From Escherichia coli (GTDB lineage: Bacteria; Pseudomonadota; Gammaproteobacteria; Enterobacterales; Enterobacteriaceae), in assembly GCF_030384885.1 (NCBI RefSeq), contig NZ_CP128613.1: a stretch of 64,000 bases of DNA; one strand, 5' to 3'. Every line of letters starts with the position of its first letter. Within the stretch, counting starts at the first letter, position 1. This document shows positions 2,397 to 60,240 of the stretch, one piece after another. The notes beneath the pieces were generated by a model, which did no database searches, was not told the DNA's origin, and worked only from the letters and a program-made list of their open reading frames with translations. Made by a program: the position numbers and the translations under genes.

Positions 2397-2465
2397 GAGA
2401 GAGAAAACCCCCGCACGTTGCAGGTATGCACCTGACAACATCACGGGGGCTAATCTTGAACCCAA
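2397..2465 (-). ncRNA. rdlD: Rdl-type antisense sRNA, copy 2; ends approximate
   Basis: Second copy of the Rdl-like sequence (GCATACCTGCAACGTGCGGGGGTTTTCTCTC on minus strand). Confidence 0.5.
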
Positions 2466-2515
2466 ACAACTCAAGAATAGCCGCGAAACGTTGTCATTAC
2501 AACAGAGGCGGCTAT

Positions 2516-43101: not shown

Positions 43102-43116
43102 TTTTTACCCAGACAT

Positions 43117-43222
43117 AAAAAAAACCCGGCATAGGGGACCGGGAAGAGGATAGTCTGCCGTCTCCAGACTAATAAACCGTTATAACACTCCCTGTTGGCA
43201 CGGGAAACTTTGTGCTCTCAGT
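43117..43222 (-). ncRNA. gadY: GadY small RNA (antisense to gadX 3' end)
   Basis: Minus-strand sequence ACTGAGAGCACAAAGTTTCCCGTGCCAACAGGGAGTGTTATAACGG...CCTATGCCGGGTTTTTTTT matches recalled GadY, ending in a hairpin and T-run. Confidence 0.8.
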
Positions 43223-43468
43223 AAGTTAAATATAACTTTTACTGGAGATAAGATCAGCCATTTTTTTATAAACATAAGCTATGCGCTGTGTGAAAATATA
43301 TTCTTCTTGCATTTTCTTATTATCAATTAACTGTTATGTCAAACTACTTTTTGGATAACTTTTGGTCCTACCAAATATGGCAGTTTATGCACGAAGAAGC
43401 GGTCTGGCATCATTTCATTAGTATACTGAAATTGAAATAATCGCAGTAATGAAATATAAGGGATAGTC

Positions 43469-44558: not shown

Positions 44559-47500
44559 TTACGCTTTTTTAAAGCGGGCAAAGAGATGTTCCACTACAAC
44601 GAAAAAGACTGGAACGAAGTAAATGGCCAGCACTGTTGCGGCAAACATCCCGCCCATCACGCCGGTACCTACCGCGTTTTGCGCGCCGGAACCGGCACCA
44701 TGACTGATTACCAGCGGCAGCACGCCGAGAATAAAGGCCAGAGAGGTCATCAGGATTGGGCGTAAACGCATTCGCGCCGCTTCGATGATCGCCTCTATCG
44801 GCGTTTTCCCTTCTTTCTGCATCATCTCAACGGCAAATTCGACGATCAGGATGGCGTTCTTGGCGGAAAGCCCGATGGTAGTCAGCAAACCAACCTGGAA
44901 GTAGACGTCATTACTTAAGCCGCGCAGATCGGTGGCCAGTAATGCGCCAACGACGCCTAACGGTACAACCAACATCACCGAGAACGGAATTGACCAGCTC
45001 TCATAAAGTGCGGCAAGGGCGAGGAACACCACGACCAGTGAAATGGCATACAGCGCGGGAGCCTGATTTGAGGATAACGCTTCCTGATACGACAGTCCGG
45101 TCCATGAGTAGCCGACGCCTGCCGGAAGTTTAGCGACCAGGTCTGCCATAAATTTCATGGCGTCACCGGTACTTTTCCCGGCCGCCGCTTCACCTAAAAT
45201 CTCCATTGACGGGATGCCGTTGTAGCGTTCCAGTCGCGGTGAACCATAGGTCCATTCGGTAGACGAATAGGCCGAAAGCGGTGCCATCGTGCCAGAGGCG
45301 TTGCGTACATACCACTGGTTGATGTTATCCGGCAACATACGGAACGGCGTGCCTGCCTGGACATACACTTTTTTCACCCGCCCCTGGTTGAGGAAGTCGT
45401 TCACGTAGCTGCTGCCGAAGGCGGTGGAAATTGTCTGGTTGATATCAGACAGCGCCACACCCATTGCCTCGGCTTTCGCGGCGTTGACGTTCACTTTGAA
45501 CATCGGCGTATCTTCCAGTCCGTTCGGGCGTACCCCGGTGACCTGATTCGGTGATTGCGCTGCCAGTGATAATAGCTCGTTTCGCGCCTGGGTCAGTTTT
45601 TCGTGCCCCAGGTTACCGTTGTCCAGCAGTTCCATATCAAAACCTGACGCGGTACCCAGTTCAGCCACCGCGGGTAAGTTGAACGGGAAGACGACGGCTT
45701 TATTGATACTGCTTAACGCAATCATTGCCCGCTGAATGATCGCGGTAACCGAGTTTTCCTCACCGACACGTTCAGACCACGGTTTGAGGCTGATAAACGC
45801 CAGACCGTTGTTTTGCCCCTGGCCACTGAAGCCAAAGCCGCCAACGGTAAACACCGACTGAACATTATCTTTCTCTTTTGTCAGATAATAATCAGTCACC
45901 TGTTGCAGCACTTTCGTGGTGTTAACCATGGTTGCACCGGAAGGTAACTGCGCGGTGGTCATAAATACCCCCTGATCCTCTTCTGGTAAGAAAGAGGTCG
46001 GCGTACGCAGGAACAGCACCGCCATCCCGGCGCAAATCAGCAGGTAGACCACCATGTAGCGACCGGTACAACGCAACAGCGAGCGGGTGCTGTCGGTATA
46101 GTGATGAGTCGATTTTTCAAACAGCGTGTTGAAGCGTGCGAACAGGGCGTTAGGTTTGTGACCGCCTTCCGGCGCGGCTTTCAGAATGGTGGCGCACAGG
46201 GCAGGGGTCAGGCTCATTGCCACAAATACTGAAAGCAGCATGGAGGAGATCAGCGTGATGGAGAACTGTCGGTAGATCTCCCCGGTTGCACCGCTCATAA
46301 AGGCCATCGGCATAAACACTGCGGAAAGAACAACGGCAATCCCGACCAGCGCACGTTGGATCTGCCCCATCGATTTATGCGTCGCTTCCTTCGGCGGTAG
46401 TTTATCTTCCGCAATGACACGCTCGACGTTCTCCACCACCACGATGGCGTCATCCACCAGTAACCCTATCGCCAGCACCATCCCGAACATAGTTAACGTG
46501 TTGATGGTGAAACCGACCGCCGACAAGATCGCAAACGTCCCGAGAATAACCACCGGTACGGCAATCGTCGGGATGATTGTGGCGCGGAAATTCTGCAAAA
46601 ACAGATACATGACCAGGAAGACGAGGATGATAGCCTCAACCAGCGTTTTGAAAACTTCCTGAATAGAAATTTTGATAAACGGTGTGGTGTCGTAAGGATA
46701 AACCGTCTTCAGGCTTGTGGGGAAATAAGCCGATAAACGGTTCAGCTCCTCTTTCACCGCTCGCGAGGTATCCAGGGCGTTTGCTCCGGTAGCCAGTTTG
46801 ATGGCGATCCCGGCAGCAGGTTTGCCGTTATAGCGCGCCACGGTGGAATAATCTTCCGCCCCAAGTTCGACGCGGGCGACATCACGCAGCAGTACTTGCG
46901 AACCATCTTGCTGAACTTTCAACAGGATTTTGCCAAATTCTTCCGGCGTTTGCAGACGCGTCTGCACAATGATCGAGGCGTTCAGTTGCTGGTCTGCCGC
47001 CTGTGGCATGCCACCCAGTTGACCACCGGAAATCTGGTTGTTTTGCACCTTAATCTGGGAAATAACATCGGAAGGTACCAGGTTATATTTATTGAGTTTT
47101 TGCGGGTCCAGCCAGATACGCATGGCGTACTCGGAACCAAAGAGTTGTACGCTACCAACGCCCGCGGTACGGCTTAGCGGGTCTTTGATATTAGACGCTA
47201 CATAGTCCGCGATATCGTACTGGTTGAGACTGCCGTTATCAGAAATGAACGCCGCTACCATCAGGATATTACTGCTCGACTTATCGACGCTAATACCCTG
47301 CTGCTGCACCGCTTCAGGTAATGAAGGCATAGCGAGTTGCAGTTTATTTTGCACCTGAACCTGCGCGATATCAGGCGATGTCCCCGTCTCAAAGGTCAGA
47401 GTGATGGAGGCATTACCCGCCGCATCGCTGGTTGAAGACATGTACATCAGGCCATCAAGCCCATTCATATTTTGCTCAATCACCTGAGTGACCGAGTCTT

Positions 47501-47672
47501 CTACCGTTTGCGCATCGGCACCCGGATAGGTTGCGCTGACGGTAATGGTTGGTGGCGCAATCTGCGGATATTGCGCAACCGGTAAGTTCATGATCGCCAG
47601 ACCACCTGCAAGCATCATAATAATGGCAAGTACCCAGGCAAAAACCGGGCGATCAATAAAATAGTTAGCCAT
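44559..47672 (-). CDS. mdtF: RND multidrug efflux pump MdtF (1037 aa)
   Basis: ORF track; AcrB-like RND transporter. Confidence 0.95.
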
Positions 47673-47696
47673 GAAAGTCCCCTTAAGCCTGCAACG

Positions 47697-48854
47697 TTAT
47701 TGTTTCGATTCGGTGCTGGCGTTTTCCTGGCTGGAGGAAATTGCACGTGCTTTGATACCCGGACGAATGCGTTGCAACCCGGAAACGATCACCCGATCGC
47801 CAGCCTGCAAGCCAGAGGTGACAACCCACTGGTCGCCGATGGCTTTGCTGGCTTCAATTTCGCGTAGCTGCACAACATCGTCTTTATCCAGAATGAGCGC
47901 CGTTGCTTTACCCTGCGCGTTGTGGGTGACGCCTTCCTGCGGCACCAGTAATACATTCTGGCGGCTACCTTCATCCACTAATGCCGTGACATACATACCT
48001 GGCAGCAAGTCACCATTTGGGTTGGGGAAAATCGCCCGTAACGTCACGGAGCCCGTGGTTTCATCCACCGTCGGGTCGGAGAATTTCAGCGTGCCGGTCT
48101 GGCTGTAACGTTTACCATTTTCCAGATTGAGCTGTACTGGCGTACTGCCCTGAACCTGTTTGATTTGTCCACTGGCGACCTCTTCTTTCATGCGCAAAAA
48201 ATCCTGCACCGACTGCGTGAGATCGACATAAATCGGGTCCAGACGTTGTACGGTAACCAGCGAATCTGCCTGATTAGCGGTAACGAGTGCGCCGACGGTC
48301 ACCGACGATTTCCCGCTGACGCCCGTAATCGGCGAGGTGACATTTGCGTATTGCAGGTTGATAGTCGCCTGTTCAACAGCCGCTTTGGCGACGGTGACAT
48401 TGGCTTCTGCTTCATTCAGCTGGGTGCGCGCGGTGTCGTAATCCTGACGGCTAACGTAGTTGGTCTTCAGCAATGATGCCTGGCGGTTGAAGGTGATGCG
48501 GGCATTGCTGGCGGTAGAGAGCGCTTTCGCCAGCGTGCCTTTGGCGGAGTTTAGATCGGCCTGTAAAGGCGCAGGATCAATCTGATACAGCGAATCGCCC
48601 TGGTTCACTTTATCGCCTTCGATAAAGTTGCGTTTAATGATAATACCGCCCACCTGGGGGCGTATCTCGGCAACTTCATAAGGAACGGTTCTACCGGGCA
48701 ATTCGCTCAACACATTGACCGAACCGGGGGAGAGTGTGACGACACCGACCTCAGGCGTCATGGCGGCGGCGTTTTCCGTCGATTTGTCATCGCAGGCGGT
48801 GAGCATCGTGCCGCAGAATAACAACGGTATTAACAGTTTTCTTCTTCTGTTCAT
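47697..48854 (-). CDS. mdtE: RND efflux membrane fusion protein MdtE (385 aa)
   Basis: ORF track; lipoprotein signal (LTAC) and MFP fold sequence. Confidence 0.95.
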   Translation of the reverse strand: MNRRRKLLIPLLFCGTMLTACDDKSTENAAAMTPEVGVVTLSPGSVNVLSELPGRTVPYEVAEIRPQVGGIIIKRNFIEGDKVNQGDSLYQIDPAPLQADLNSAKGTLAKALSTASNARITFNRQASLLKTNYVSRQDYDTARTQLNEAEANVTVAKAAVEQATINLQYANVTSPITGVSGKSSVTVGALVTANQADSLVTVQRLDPIYVDLTQSVQDFLRMKEEVASGQIKQVQGSTPVQLNLENGKRYSQTGTLKFSDPTVDETTGSVTLRAIFPNPNGDLLPGMYVTALVDEGSRQNVLLVPQEGVTHNAQGKATALILDKDDVVQLREIEASKAIGDQWVVTSGLQAGDRVIVSGLQRIRPGIKARAISSSQENASTESKQ

Positions 48855-49192
48855 TTTAGTCCCTGAAAATTCTTGAGATATAACGGTTCTTTAAATTGCG
48901 CGCGAGGAGAGGTATGAGGGATTTACAGACCAGCGGCATAGTGGGGTTGTCAGCCAGTAAGATGGGATGCAAGCACAGTGATCGACATGGTGAGGTCAAC
49001 GACAAAAAAAATGTTGCCGTTCTGCCAACAGTTCCTGCCAGCATTCGGGCAACGAAGGGTTCTACTGGTGGATACACATACCAGGGGAATAAAGTCGTTT
49101 TCGCCTCTCCTTTAGTCATCACCGGGGATAATGAAATCAGCATCTGCATCCCTCTTCATGCCTGCCATCATTTTCAGTTAATTATGTCCTGA

Positions 49193-49720
49193 CTAAAAAT
49201 AAGATGTGATACCCAGGGTGACGATGTCGCTCATACGTCTTAGTTTCAGCTTGTACATAATGTTGAATTTCTGAATCTTTAATGTTTGTTGCGAAATATT
49301 GAGCGTTGACGTGATATTGCTTTCGTTTTTGTTTTTCAGAATCAGCTGCATAATTTTGAACTGATTATGTGAAAAACATAATTGTGAATTCTTATGGGGC
49401 AAGTGTTTACCATAAGTAATCTCAAGAAGATTTTTGATACTTTCTTTGCGGCTGACAAAATAAATAGGCGCTTTAGCTTTTAGTTTACTGATGTGATAAG
49501 GTGCCAAAACAATAATTCTCTCGGCGTCTAATTTCTCCAGAAATTTAATCGCTTCTTCATCAAGGATATGGTTGTGATAGGTATCAATGATAACCTTGAA
49601 GGGTTTATTACCTACTTTTTTGATCTCTGACAGGGAATTGATTTTTATCATTTCGTGATTATCTTTCAACTGCCAAAAGCCCTGTAAAAGAAAAGAATCT
49701 TTCGTCATGAGAAAAATCAT
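49193..49720 (-). CDS. gadE: LuxR-family acid-resistance master regulator GadE (175 aa)
   Basis: ATG at 49720 (MIFLMTKDSFLLQGFW...) with ggag RBS, inside track ORF 49193..49798. Confidence 0.9.
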   Translation of the reverse strand: MIFLMTKDSFLLQGFWQLKDNHEMIKINSLSEIKKVGNKPFKVIIDTYHNHILDEEAIKFLEKLDAERIIVLAPYHISKLKAKAPIYFVSRKESIKNLLEITYGKHLPHKNSQLCFSHNQFKIMQLILKNKNESNITSTLNISQQTLKIQKFNIMYKLKLRRMSDIVTLGITSYF

Positions 49721-50518
49721 AACTTGCTCCTTAGCCGTTATCGTTTCGAACATGTCATCCTTTTCATTATTTACATCCCTGTCCGAATCGTTGTTCAATA
49801 TAGTAAACGCCTATAAGAACCTTGCCCTTCGTGAACTAATACGTCTATTAACACTAATCAATAATTCAGATTTATCCATCACGCACTCCATATATTGATC
49901 CTAAGTAAAATTCCTGGTTGTTATCAGATTGTAAACTGCAAACAAAAAATTAACGTTTGCGGATTACTGCCCAAGAATAAGTTATCAATAACCAGTTTGT
50001 GATCTCTGAAGAATATTACTAAAGTTAAAATGTAATCCGATTTAAATATCGAGTCTCCTTGTTTCGACTTAAGCTGGCAATTGGATTGCCAGCTTTCTTT
50101 TAACGCATTGAAATTACCTGAGTAAATAACTCATTCATGTCTTCAGGTTATTATATAGCGTCTGGAGACACGGATATTTATGCAATGTAATCAACGCCAA
50201 TTGCAAAAAAATGAACCCGGATTACTTATTTAACCGCCCATAGCATCAACGCCTACGGAACTCTTTGTTCACTTTCCCACAGCACTTTTAAAACATTAAA
50301 CCTGACTACGGAAAATATCAGCCATGATAATGTTTGAAATGGCTAATTTGCCATGCAATGAAAAAAATCAGATAAAATTCAGTAGGTTGAAATACTTATC
50401 AGCAGGTAATTATTTCAATGATAGCGCGCAATTGATCTAAAATGCTGTGTAGCGGAGAGAGTATTAATTGGATCATAGTCACATCAAGTGACTATGATCC
50501 AGGTGGCAATAGGGATAA
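49721..50518 (-). promoter_or_regulatory. Long AT-rich gadE upstream control region
   Basis: ~800 bp non-coding AT-rich tract between hdeD 3' end and gadE start; established knowledge that gadE has an extended multi-promoter regulatory region. Confidence 0.6.
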
Positions 50519-51091
50519 TTATTGCTTTTTAACAAACAAACTGGCGAAGCTGAACAGGCTAGCGGCGCTAAATATCAGTTCAATTCCCACTAGTGTGGAA
50601 ACCAGCGTTACAGAAACCATCGGCGTTGCGCCAAGGAATATCCAGGCAATGACGATATCCAGCACACCAATAACGAGCTGTAGCCAACTGCCTTTCATTG
50701 AACGCTGACGATACCAACTCATCAGACGAATAACTCCTGCCACACAGAACAAACCGGCAATAAATGCCGCAATGGCAAAAATGCCCAGCTCCGGTGCGCG
50801 GATGAAGAAATAGCCGATCAATAAATAGGCGATTGCGACGAGGAAACCGGATAATACAGGCCAGAAATTATGACTGCGGTTGCTGAATAACCCGACAATA
50901 AGCGCAATACCTGAGCAGATTAATAATGCACCCACTACTGTGCTTAAAATGTCGCCAGAGACGAACGGGAAACTGATACACAGCAACCCGACGATAAACA
51001 GCAGCACGGCAATAAACTGGATTGCTCTACGGTGCTTTTTAAGCATCTCCAGATCAAACTTCAAAATTGTTGCCTTATCTATATATAACAT
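50519..51091 (-). CDS. hdeD: Acid-resistance membrane protein HdeD (190 aa)
   Basis: ORF track; multi-TM. Confidence 0.9.
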   Translation of the reverse strand: MLYIDKATILKFDLEMLKKHRRAIQFIAVLLFIVGLLCISFPFVSGDILSTVVGALLICSGIALIVGLFSNRSHNFWPVLSGFLVAIAYLLIGYFFIRAPELGIFAIAAFIAGLFCVAGVIRLMSWYRQRSMKGSWLQLVIGVLDIVIAWIFLGATPMVSVTLVSTLVGIELIFSAASLFSFASLFVKKQ

Positions 51092-51345
51092 ATAACCACC
51101 CTATAAAATTAAGAAGAAAATCCCCTGCTATCAATCTATGCCAAAAACGCGTCTAAGAATGCAGTCGATTTAATAAAAATTTCCTAATTACAGTATCTGA
51201 TGCATCTGTAACTCATTGTATTGAAATAAAAATATCTGATTTTGATATTTTCCATCAACATGACATATACAGAAAACCAGGTTATAACCTCAGTGTCGAA
51301 ATTAATTCGTGACGGCTCTTTCACTTTATAGTTGAGGATATTACG

Positions 51346-51678
51346 ATGAAAAAAGTATTAGGCGTTATTCTTGGTGGTCTGCTTCTTCTGCCAGTGGTGA
51401 GCAATGCAGCGGATGCACAAAAAGCAGCTGATAACAAAAAACCGGTCAACACCTGGACCTGTGAAGATTTTCTGGCTGTGGACGAATCCTTCCAGCCAAC
51501 TGCAGTTGGTTTTGCTGAAGCACTGAACAATAAAGATAAACCAGAAGATGCGGTTTTAGATGTTCAGGGTATTGCAACCGTAACCCCAGCGATCGTTCAG
51601 GCTTGTACTCAGGATAAACAAGCCAACTTTAAAGATAAAGTTAAAAGCGAATGGGACAAAGTTAAGAAAGATATGTAA
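51346..51678 (+). CDS. hdeA: Periplasmic acid stress chaperone HdeA (110 aa)
   Basis: ORF track; signal peptide; aggata RBS. Confidence 0.95.
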   Translation: MKKVLGVILGGLLLLPVVSNAADAQKAADNKKPVNTWTCEDFLAVDESFQPTAVGFAEALNNKDKPEDAVLDVQGIATVTPAIVQACTQDKQANFKDKVKSEWDKVKKDM

Positions 51679-51793
51679 TTCCGGGAATACGTTACATCGT
51701 ACTTCCTTGCATATTGAACAGGTAGGAATACCTTCTTCAAAAGCAGCTATTCCTTCTGTTCATATTTAATCTCTATATTGAATGGGTTACAAA

Positions 51794-52120
51794 ATGAATA
51801 TTTCATCTCTCCGTAAAGCGTTTATTTTTATGGGCGCTGTAGCGGCTTTGTCACTGGTGAACGCACAATCTGCGCTGGCAGCCAATGAATCCGCTAAAGA
51901 TATGACTTGCCAGGAATTTATTGATCTGAATCCAAAAGCAATGACACCGGTTGCGTGGTGGATGCTGCATGAAGAAACAGTTTATAAAGGTGGTGATACT
52001 GTTACTTTAAATGAAACCGATCTTACTCAAATTCCTAAAGTGATCGAATACTGCAAAAAAAATCCGCAGAAAAATTTGTATACTTTCAAAAATCAAGCAT
52101 CTAATGACTTGCCGAATTAA
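51794..52120 (+). CDS. hdeB: Periplasmic acid stress chaperone HdeB (108 aa)
   Basis: ATG at 51794 (MNISSLRKAFIFMGAVAALSLVNA...) within track ORF 51782..52120. Confidence 0.9.
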   Translation: MNISSLRKAFIFMGAVAALSLVNAQSALAANESAKDMTCQEFIDLNPKAMTPVAWWMLHEETVYKGGDTVTLNETDLTQIPKVIEYCKKNPQKNLYTFKNQASNDLPN

Positions 52121-52183
52121 TGGGGCACAAGTAAAAAGGAGTAGCAAGTTGAGCCATCTTGCTGCTCCTTTTTGCATTTTTAT

Positions 52184-52831
52184 ATGACAGCAGAATTTAT
52201 TATACGTCTTATACTCGCAGCAATTGCCTGTGGCGCTATTGGCATGGAAAGGCAAATGCGCGGCAAAGGAGCAGGGTTACGCACACATGTATTAATTGGC
52301 ATGGGAAGCGCCCTGTTTATGATTGTTTCGAAATATGGTTTTGCTGACGTGCTGTCTTTAGATCACGTCGGACTGGACCCCAGCCGTATTGCTGCTCAGG
52401 TGGTGACGGGCGTCGGGTTTATCGGTGCAGGTAACATTCTCGTTCGTAACCAAAATATTGTGGGTCTGACGACGGCAGCCGATATCTGGGTGACTGCGGC
52501 TATTGGTATGGTGATTGGCAGCGGTATGTATGAGCTGGGCATTTATGGTTCAGTAATGACCTTGCTGGTGCTGGAAGTCTTCCATCAATTAACCTTCCGC
52601 CTGATGAATAAAAATTACCATTTACAGCTGACATTAGTGAACGGTAATACGGTATCAATGCTCGACTGGTTTAAGCAGCAAAAAATAAAAACGGATTTAG
52701 TTTCGTTGCAGGAAAATGAAGATCATGAAGTGGTCGCCATTGATATCCAGCTTCATGCCACGACGTCGATAGAAGATCTGTTGCGATTATTAAAAGGTAT
52801 GGCAGGGGTGAAAGGCGTTTCAATTAGCTAA
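52184..52831 (+). CDS. yhiD: MgtC-family inner membrane protein YhiD (215 aa)
   Basis: ATG at 52184 (MTAEFIIRLILAAIACGAIGMERQ...) - MgtC/SapB signature. Confidence 0.9.
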   Translation: MTAEFIIRLILAAIACGAIGMERQMRGKGAGLRTHVLIGMGSALFMIVSKYGFADVLSLDHVGLDPSRIAAQVVTGVGFIGAGNILVRNQNIVGLTTAADIWVTAAIGMVIGSGMYELGIYGSVMTLLVLEVFHQLTFRLMNKNYHLQLTLVNGNTVSMLDWFKQQKIKTDLVSLQENEDHEVVAIDIQLHATTSIEDLLRLLKGMAGVKGVSIS

Positions 52832-52873
52832 TCTGTGTGGTAGCGAAATCACACTCGCCACCCTACTGGAAAT

Positions 52874-59758: not shown

Positions 59759-59911
59759 ATTGCGCTCCTGATTGTTGCAGGTAGTGTCTCTCTTCGAAGC
59801 GGATAAGTCAAAAACATATATGTTTTAACGAATGTGTAAGTGCAGAGGAAGGTAATAGGTGTGAATTAAGCGTTGGGTGTTCATTTGAAAGGAAGTCTGA
59901 ATCAGGATGTA

Positions 59912-60005
59912 AAAAAACCGACTTTGCGTCGGTTTTTTACTCTTCAGCCAGAGTTGGTGGCTCTGGCTGGAGTGAGAATGCCCACATCTAACGGTTCAAT
60001 ACTAT
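59912..60005 (-). ncRNA. agrB: AgrB-like sRNA (antisense regulator of dinQ); ends approximate
   Basis: Repeat unit 'ggctctggctggagtgaga-tgcccacatctaac' whose minus-strand transcript is complementary to the dinQ leader copy at ~60395-60430; ends in hairpin ccgac-gcaaa-gtcgg plus T-run. Confidence 0.45.
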
Positions 60006-60147
60006 TAGCCAGTGGCTAACATTGCAAGCGTTAGCGATTTCTTCAGCTGGCGAAGGGACAGTTTGCTATACATGGTGGTGAAAGAGGATTGATATACTTT
60101 CATCGGGTCGCTGCCGTACCAAGCCTTGTCCGAATCCGGACGTAAAA

Positions 60148-60240
60148 AAACCGACTTCGCGTCGGTTTTTTTACTCTTCAGCCCAGAATTGGTGGCTCTG
60201 GCTGGAGTGAGATAGCCATCATCTAACACATCAATGCTAA
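60148..60240 (-). ncRNA. agrA: AgrA-like sRNA (antisense regulator of dinQ); ends approximate
   Basis: Second copy of the repeat plus the same terminator hairpin. Confidence 0.45.

Follow-up and report, generated by a model that had tools for sequence, protein, structure and literature searches.

The control region of gadE in Escherichia coli carries multiple promoters, and sites for GadE, GadX/W, YdeO, EvgA, ArcA and H-NS are listed in it. It is known as the gadE 'sensory integration region' (Sayed and Foster 2009 and Ma et al. 2004, as summarized in PMC3708157). According to that summary, its 798-bp spacer is 'unusually long', a property of about eight intergenic regions in E. coli, and gadE transcripts start at -21, -124 (T1), -324/-317 (T2) and -566 (T3), where negative numbers count upstream from the gadE ATG (PMC3708157).

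In strain K-12, the same region contains the gene for a small RNA, ArrS. The K-12 RefSeq record lists the ncRNA gene arrS (b4704) at 3657985..3658054, on the opposite strand to gadE (3658366..3658893), which corresponds to -381..-312. The K-12 literature describes production of ArrS in stationary phase and at acid pH, an antisense role against the longest gadE transcript, and synthesis that depends on sigma-S and GadE (PMC6755755). An RNase III cleavage site in ArrS has been mapped in vivo (PMC6212723). On overexpression of ArrS, T3 is processed to the more stable T2 (PMC6872547), and T2 levels and acid survival go up (PMC6755755, PMC6872547); the cleavage of T3 by ArrS has no direct experimental proof, as PMC6872547 points out, and a delta-arrS strain survives acid shock like the wild type (PMC6755755). 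RIL-seq classes ArrS with the Hfq sRNAs (PMC5145812). Two trans targets are relevant here: ArrS activates cfa, with its 5' end base-pairing so that an RNase E site is covered, as a C7G mutation and its compensatory partner show (PMC6755755), and its terminator loop is reported to be functional in repression of fepA (PMC11979758).

The proposed mechanism, of which the cis part is taken second-hand from the citing literature, can be outlined as follows. ArrS would pair with nucleotides 186-255 of the T3 leader to form a duplex that serves as an RNase III substrate, and processing of this duplex would leave a shorter, T2-like gadE mRNA of greater stability; more GadE would in turn give more ArrS, a positive feedback loop. 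ArrS also binds Hfq and acts in trans, its 5' end (including C7) pairing with the cfa 5' UTR so that the RNase E site is masked and cfa is turned on, and its terminator loop is needed to repress fepA.

Two other small RNAs of the island are close counterparts. GadY (RF00122) is, like ArrS, a small sigma-S-linked RNA that is antisense to the mRNA of an acid regulator and acts positively, and RIL-seq likewise classes it as a cis and trans regulator (PMC5145812). GadY, however, overlaps the 3' region of gadX whereas ArrS overlaps a 5' leader, an Rfam family exists for GadY only, and the two RNAs have no sequence relationship. GadF, described in PMC5145812 and represented in Rfam by ES205, shares a transcription unit with gadE, binds Hfq and has the trans target cfa in common with ArrS; it differs in being a sense-strand RNA processed from the gadE mRNA, downstream of gadE, whereas ArrS is antisense and lies in the spacer.

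The hdeD-gadE spacer

The DNA considered here, referred to below as the window, is a stretch of 64,000 nucleotides from E. coli (NZ_CP128613.1). It includes the acid fitness island in the orientation opposite to that of K-12: the list of open reading frames (ORFs) has mdtF, mdtE, gadE and hdeD on the - strand and hdeA, hdeB and yhiD on the + strand. The gadE coding sequence (49193-49720, - strand) specifies 175 amino acids beginning MIFLMTKDS, is 98.5% identical to K-12 gadE, and is annotated under that name in the genome of E. coli 2013C-4282 (NZ_CP027579.1), which is 100% identical to the window over the 2.1 kb around the spacer. This 2.1-kb segment is present in 5416 of 5426 complete E. coli genomes.

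The region of interest, 49721-50518, is exactly the spacer between gadE, whose ATG is at 49720, and hdeD (50519-51091, - strand, from the ORF list), whose stop is at 50519. Its 798 bp match the K-12 length. The original prediction of about 800 bp of AT-rich non-coding DNA ahead of gadE describes it well: the GC content is 35.5% versus 49.1% for the whole window (the gadE coding sequence, at 33.7%, is equally AT-rich), and the spacer contains no ORF of at least 100 amino acids, just a few mechanically listed ORFs of 30-88 amino acids. That mechanical list also offers a longer gadE ORF starting from a TTG at 49798, which we rejected; a 1-nt indel near -68 breaks its frame in divergent lineages.

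The spacer aligns end to end with that of K-12 MG1655 without indels; 34 substitutions leave the two 95.74% identical. Twenty of the 34 are packed into the hdeD-proximal 164 bp (-798..-635). Although the spacer itself is found in nearly all complete E. coli genomes (5413/5426), the window carries a rare allele of it: a match of at least 99% occurs in only 12 of the 5413, and most of the others fall at 95-97%.

Placed on the window, the published gadE starts are at 49741 (-21), 49844 (-124, T1), 50044/50037 (-324/-317, T2) and 50286 (-566, T3), and none has a substitution relative to K-12 within 19 nt. The P3 core promoter with the T3 start (50278-50367, - strand, equivalent to -647..-558; PMC3708157) is 89-98% identical to the window in all six Escherichia lineages that we aligned. 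The P1 promoter region and T1 leader, including the T1 and -21 starts, occupy 49721-49920 (- strand; lineage alignment and PMC3708157); the leader proper (-124..-1) is 94-98% identical across the lineages, and the adjoining -200..-125 is 87-97% identical. Multiple gadE promoters had been expected here from E. coli, and around each of the published starts the sequence indeed matches K-12 exactly and is conserved among the Escherichia lineages. Relative to the described sensory integration region, then, this is the same 798-bp spacer with the surroundings of T3, T2, T1 and -21 conserved, differing by the substitutions counted above and mostly at the hdeD end.

A separate feature lies near that end. 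A 14-bp hairpin at 50469-50501, in the sense of the - strand, lies 18 nt past the hdeD stop and is kept in six Escherichia lineages. In three of its pairs both partners are exchanged (GGAUC..GAUCC to GCCUC..GAGGC), and its G-U wobbles are valid on the hdeD-sense strand only. The hairpin is not followed by a U-tract, and is probably an hdeD 3'-end or stabilizer hairpin.

Locating arrS

The original prediction named an antisense RNA, ArrS, against the long gadE leader but did not assign it a position. Alignment with the K-12 record, one of the checks suggested with that prediction, is decisive: the spacer is colinear with its K-12 counterpart, and a 70-nt segment on the + strand, 50032-50101, matches b4704 at 70 of 70 positions (the length is that of the K-12 annotation). 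The earlier description of the region as upstream of gadE stands and needs an amendment only as to strand; because gadE is on the - strand and ArrS is antisense to gadE, ArrS is encoded on the + strand of the window. In gadE coordinates the gene covers -312..-381, inside the T3 leader (-566..-1) and on its opposite strand, and the RNA is perfectly complementary to nucleotides 186-255 of the 566-nt leader. By coordinate arithmetic, the T2 5' ends at -317 and -324 (PMC3708157) face ArrS nucleotides 6 and 13. These fall in the 5' single-stranded part of ArrS (50032-50045, + strand), which also contains C7 (50038; PMC6755755).

The identity extends beyond the gene. From -411 to -229 (window 49950-50130) there are no substitutions relative to K-12, versus 34 across the spacer, and the identical stretch includes the 82 nt upstream of arrS. 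The gene itself is thus no different from K-12 arrS in position, strand, sequence or terminator, while the spacer around it is a rare allele 4.3% removed from that of K-12.

A second suggested check, an Rfam scan, gives a false negative. At the gathering threshold there is no match within 49721-50518, and at E<=10 nothing is found in 50032-50101, with only chance-level snoRNA matches elsewhere in the spacer. The scan is empty at arrS because Rfam 15 lacks any family matching ArrS, rather than because the RNA is absent. Likewise, in the RefSeq records that we inspected besides K-12, no feature is annotated at arrS. With ArrS missing from both Rfam and PGAP annotation, automated scans therefore overlook the gene, which comes to light only when the sequence is aligned to the curated K-12 record.

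From this sequence comparison, 49721-50518 is very probably the known gadE control region of the acid fitness island with an intact arrS. What it contains is ArrS itself, already known, inside a control region that is also known. Together they are textbook E. coli acid resistance, carried intact here: real but ordinary.

Predicted promoter and possible activator sites

A promoter for arrS can be predicted on the + strand at 49997-50025, with a -35 element TTGTGA (49997-50002), a 17-nt spacer, a C at -13 (50019) and a -10 element TAAAGT (50020-50025). The start of arrS, a G at 50032, follows the predicted -10 element at a distance of 6 nt. Three features of this promoter, namely TTTGTGAT, the C at -13 and a TANNNT pattern, recur in all six lineages, with TAGAAT or TAAAAT as the -10 element in the divergent ones. 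The C at -13 fits the sigma-S dependence reported in PMC6755755, as far as a sequence feature may indicate it. A general sigma-70 scan is uninformative, giving 7 sites versus 7.2 expected and none at the starts of arrS or at the published starts of gadE.

Upstream of the predicted -35 element, the block CCAAGAATAAGTTATCAAT (49971-49989, + strand) covers -61..-43 of arrS and -251..-269 of gadE; a single change, in one lineage, is its only variation in the alignment. The block is a candidate activator site. We do not claim a GadE site, there or elsewhere, because matches to the available motifs are at chance level: for the GAD-box consensus, the best match anywhere scanned is 13/20 (7 mismatches), with 12/20 on the -35 side of arrS and none above chance, and for the ChIP-exo GadE motif (from PMC4918353) there are 46 matches versus 35 +/- 7 expected. 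YdeO hexamers occur at -389, -615, -668 and -692, a 6-mer carrying no statistical weight.

Terminator and fold

A terminator scan, made independently of K-12, identifies an intrinsic terminator at the 3' end of the gene (50071-50101, + strand). Its hairpin spans 50071-50095 and consists of an 11-bp stem, AAGCUGGCAAU/AUUGCCAGCUU, with 5 G-C pairs and a 3-nt loop, UGG (50082-50084); the tail is UCUUUU (TCTTTT in the DNA). The 70-nt RNA folds with a dG of -20.2 kcal/mol and a z-score of -3.84, and none of 200 shuffled sequences folds as well.

Could this + strand hairpin be a chance or bidirectional terminator-like palindrome, with no sRNA made in this strain? A scan of species-representative genomes for the exact ArrS stem, with the loop left free, bears on the question. 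Outside Escherichia it gave nine matches, one in a contaminant contig (described below) and eight chance palindromes in unrelated genomes, so the same 10-nt arm palindrome can evidently arise by accident. Those eight, however, share only 2-15 of the 39 bases upstream with ArrS, whereas in the window all 70 nt of the gene and the 82 nt before it are those of K-12, in which the RNA has been both detected and investigated. We regard an accidental palindrome as highly improbable.

Within Escherichia, the scan matched E. whittamii, a divergent record titled 'E. coli' E69, Escherichia sp. E1V33 and Escherichia sp. MOD1-EC7003. It is blind to alleles such as A41G (see below), and so the lack of E. 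albertii, E. fergusonii and E. marmotae among its matches is uninformative on whether they have arrS.

Conservation within E. coli

The gene is present at full length in 5411 of 5426 complete E. coli genomes and is identical to the window's copy in 4095 of these. The 181-bp block that includes it (49950-50130) is at least 99% identical in 4149 of the 5411; for flanks of equal size on either side, the same level is reached in 3 and 6 genomes. Of the genomes with a non-identical arrS, three were inspected, and all carry a single change, A41G (50072). This allele converts an A-U pair at the base of the terminator stem to a G-U pair; on the gadE-sense strand it would give a C.A mismatch.

One genome illustrates loss of the segment. 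NZ_CP015023.1 (strain SRCC 1675, from apple cider) is without part of gadW, mdtF, mdtE, gadE, arrS and the spacer to about -544; the gadW remnant is fused beside the gadE P3 region and hdeD, with the breakpoint at approximately window position 50264. This is a natural deletion of gadE and arrS.

Conservation across Escherichia lineages

Alignment of six lineages shows where the spacer is held constant. Across arrS (-381..-312), identity to the window is 95.7-100%, with 67 of 70 columns invariant. Retrieval of the genomes with the exact stem fixes the 20 stem bases in advance; the 45 ArrS positions outside the hairpin are 93-100% identical. For comparison, identity to the window is 87-97% for the hdeD coding sequence and 88-98% for that of gadE, and in the three most divergent lineages both are at 87-89%. 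In those three, parts of the spacer are far less similar: identity is 28-34% over -557..-382 and drops to about 50% on the hdeD side (-798..-648).

The transition at the 3' end of arrS is abrupt. In the three divergent lineages, the approximately 80 nt past this end mostly align to gaps, and BLAST alignability restarts exactly at the final base of arrS (50101) in two of them and within ten bases of it in the other. The adjacent segment 50102-50190 (-382..-470) is present in E. coli, K-12 and Escherichia sp. MOD1-EC7003, and is missing or unalignable in E. whittamii, Escherichia sp. E1V33 and 'E69'. We considered whether -382..-470 might be a small mobile element and rejected this, the median copy number being one per genome.

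One explanation of the conserved block is that it reflects DNA elements of gadE, such as the P2 promoter or sites for YdeO, EvgA, GadE, GadX or GadW, rather than selection on ArrS. Since the T2 starts (-324/-317) fall within arrS, any P2 would overlap the gene; YdeO binds the gadEp2p3 fragment (PMC4222967); and the sequence on the upstream side of arrS (-311..-230) is also fairly conserved, at 72-84%. On the other hand, conservation ends at or near the end of the ArrS T-tract, with the DNA beyond it deleted or replaced in three lineages. Within the best-conserved part there is also a terminator hairpin in + strand orientation, A41G retains pairing on the ArrS strand only, and the scan found no sigma-70-like P2. 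We consider it improbable that DNA elements of gadE account for the block. The edge at the terminator and the strand-specific wobble allele instead lend modest support to the idea that the RNA itself may be under selection, beyond gadE promoter DNA. These two observations, the sharp edge and a common allele that pairs on one strand only, are the new, if minor, part of this analysis.

What would such selection act on? An RNA encoded opposite the leader is complementary to it by default. The strong conservation of arrS therefore suggests some further constraint, for example from the trans seed, the terminator with its loop, binding to Hfq, or overlapping P2 and processing signals of gadE. It is conceivable, and we offer it tentatively, that the constraint on ArrS exceeds what a cis antisense RNA needs and that ArrS is a conserved trans-acting core sRNA of the genus, defined by its 5' seed and terminator loop, with the effect on the T3 leader secondary to its position. 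This suggestion is made because arrS is 96-100% identical where the adjacent gadE leader DNA is deleted or replaced, and because A41G, the only common allele in E. coli, pairs on the ArrS strand only.

Another explanation is that ArrS is mainly a trans-acting, Hfq-dependent regulator (of cfa, fepA and other acid-response mRNAs) whose antisense position adds little to control of gadE. Cis complementarity survives any mutation and cannot explain 96-100% identity next to coding genes at 87-89%; no variation is seen in the 5' seed or in the terminator loop, each with a demonstrated trans function; the grouping of ArrS with sRNAs by RIL-seq (PMC5145812) agrees; and so do the absence of an acid-shock phenotype in the delta-arrS strain (PMC6755755) and the unproven status of direct T3 cleavage (PMC6872547). 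Against this, the RNase III site in ArrS agrees with a duplex on gadE mRNA (PMC6212723), and overexpression of ArrS does lift T2 and acid survival (PMC6755755, PMC6872547). A mainly trans role deserves consideration without being the outcome that we would expect. It is in any case compatible with the preferred reading of the region as the known gadE control region with an intact arrS, cis and trans roles not being mutually exclusive.

Neighboring RNAs and other observations

Outside the spacer, downstream of gadE, the locus of gadF, the sRNA from the gadE 3' UTR, is at 49004-49094 (- strand) and is identical to K-12 gadF (b4718) at 91 of 91 positions; Rfam ES205 (RF02754) matches 49004-49075 there at 105 bits, the sole Rfam match close to the spacer. 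In the genome that is 100% identical around the spacer, PGAP annotates a 92-residue 'hypothetical protein', WP_001205315.1, at the equivalent of 48914-49192 (+ strand), opposite gadF and between gadE and mdtE. No such gene is listed in the curated K-12 record, and the call of WP_001205315.1 across an sRNA locus is probably spurious.

Other Rfam sRNAs in the window are GadY at 43112-43225 (- strand, 150 bits), two copies of the rdlD antitoxin at 1919-1984 and 2402-2467 (- strand), and two copies of the AgrB antisense RNA at 59909-59991 and 60142-60226 (- strand).

Finally, the contaminant found in the stem scan is NZ_JAUFQN010000010.1, an 8635-bp contig assigned to 'Flavobacterium paronense CECT 8460'. 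It is colinear with the acid fitness island over window positions 45521-52836, is 96.7% identical to the window over 7.3 kb and 98.9% identical to K-12, and has a GC content of 46.7%. It is almost certainly E. coli contamination of the Flavobacterium assembly.
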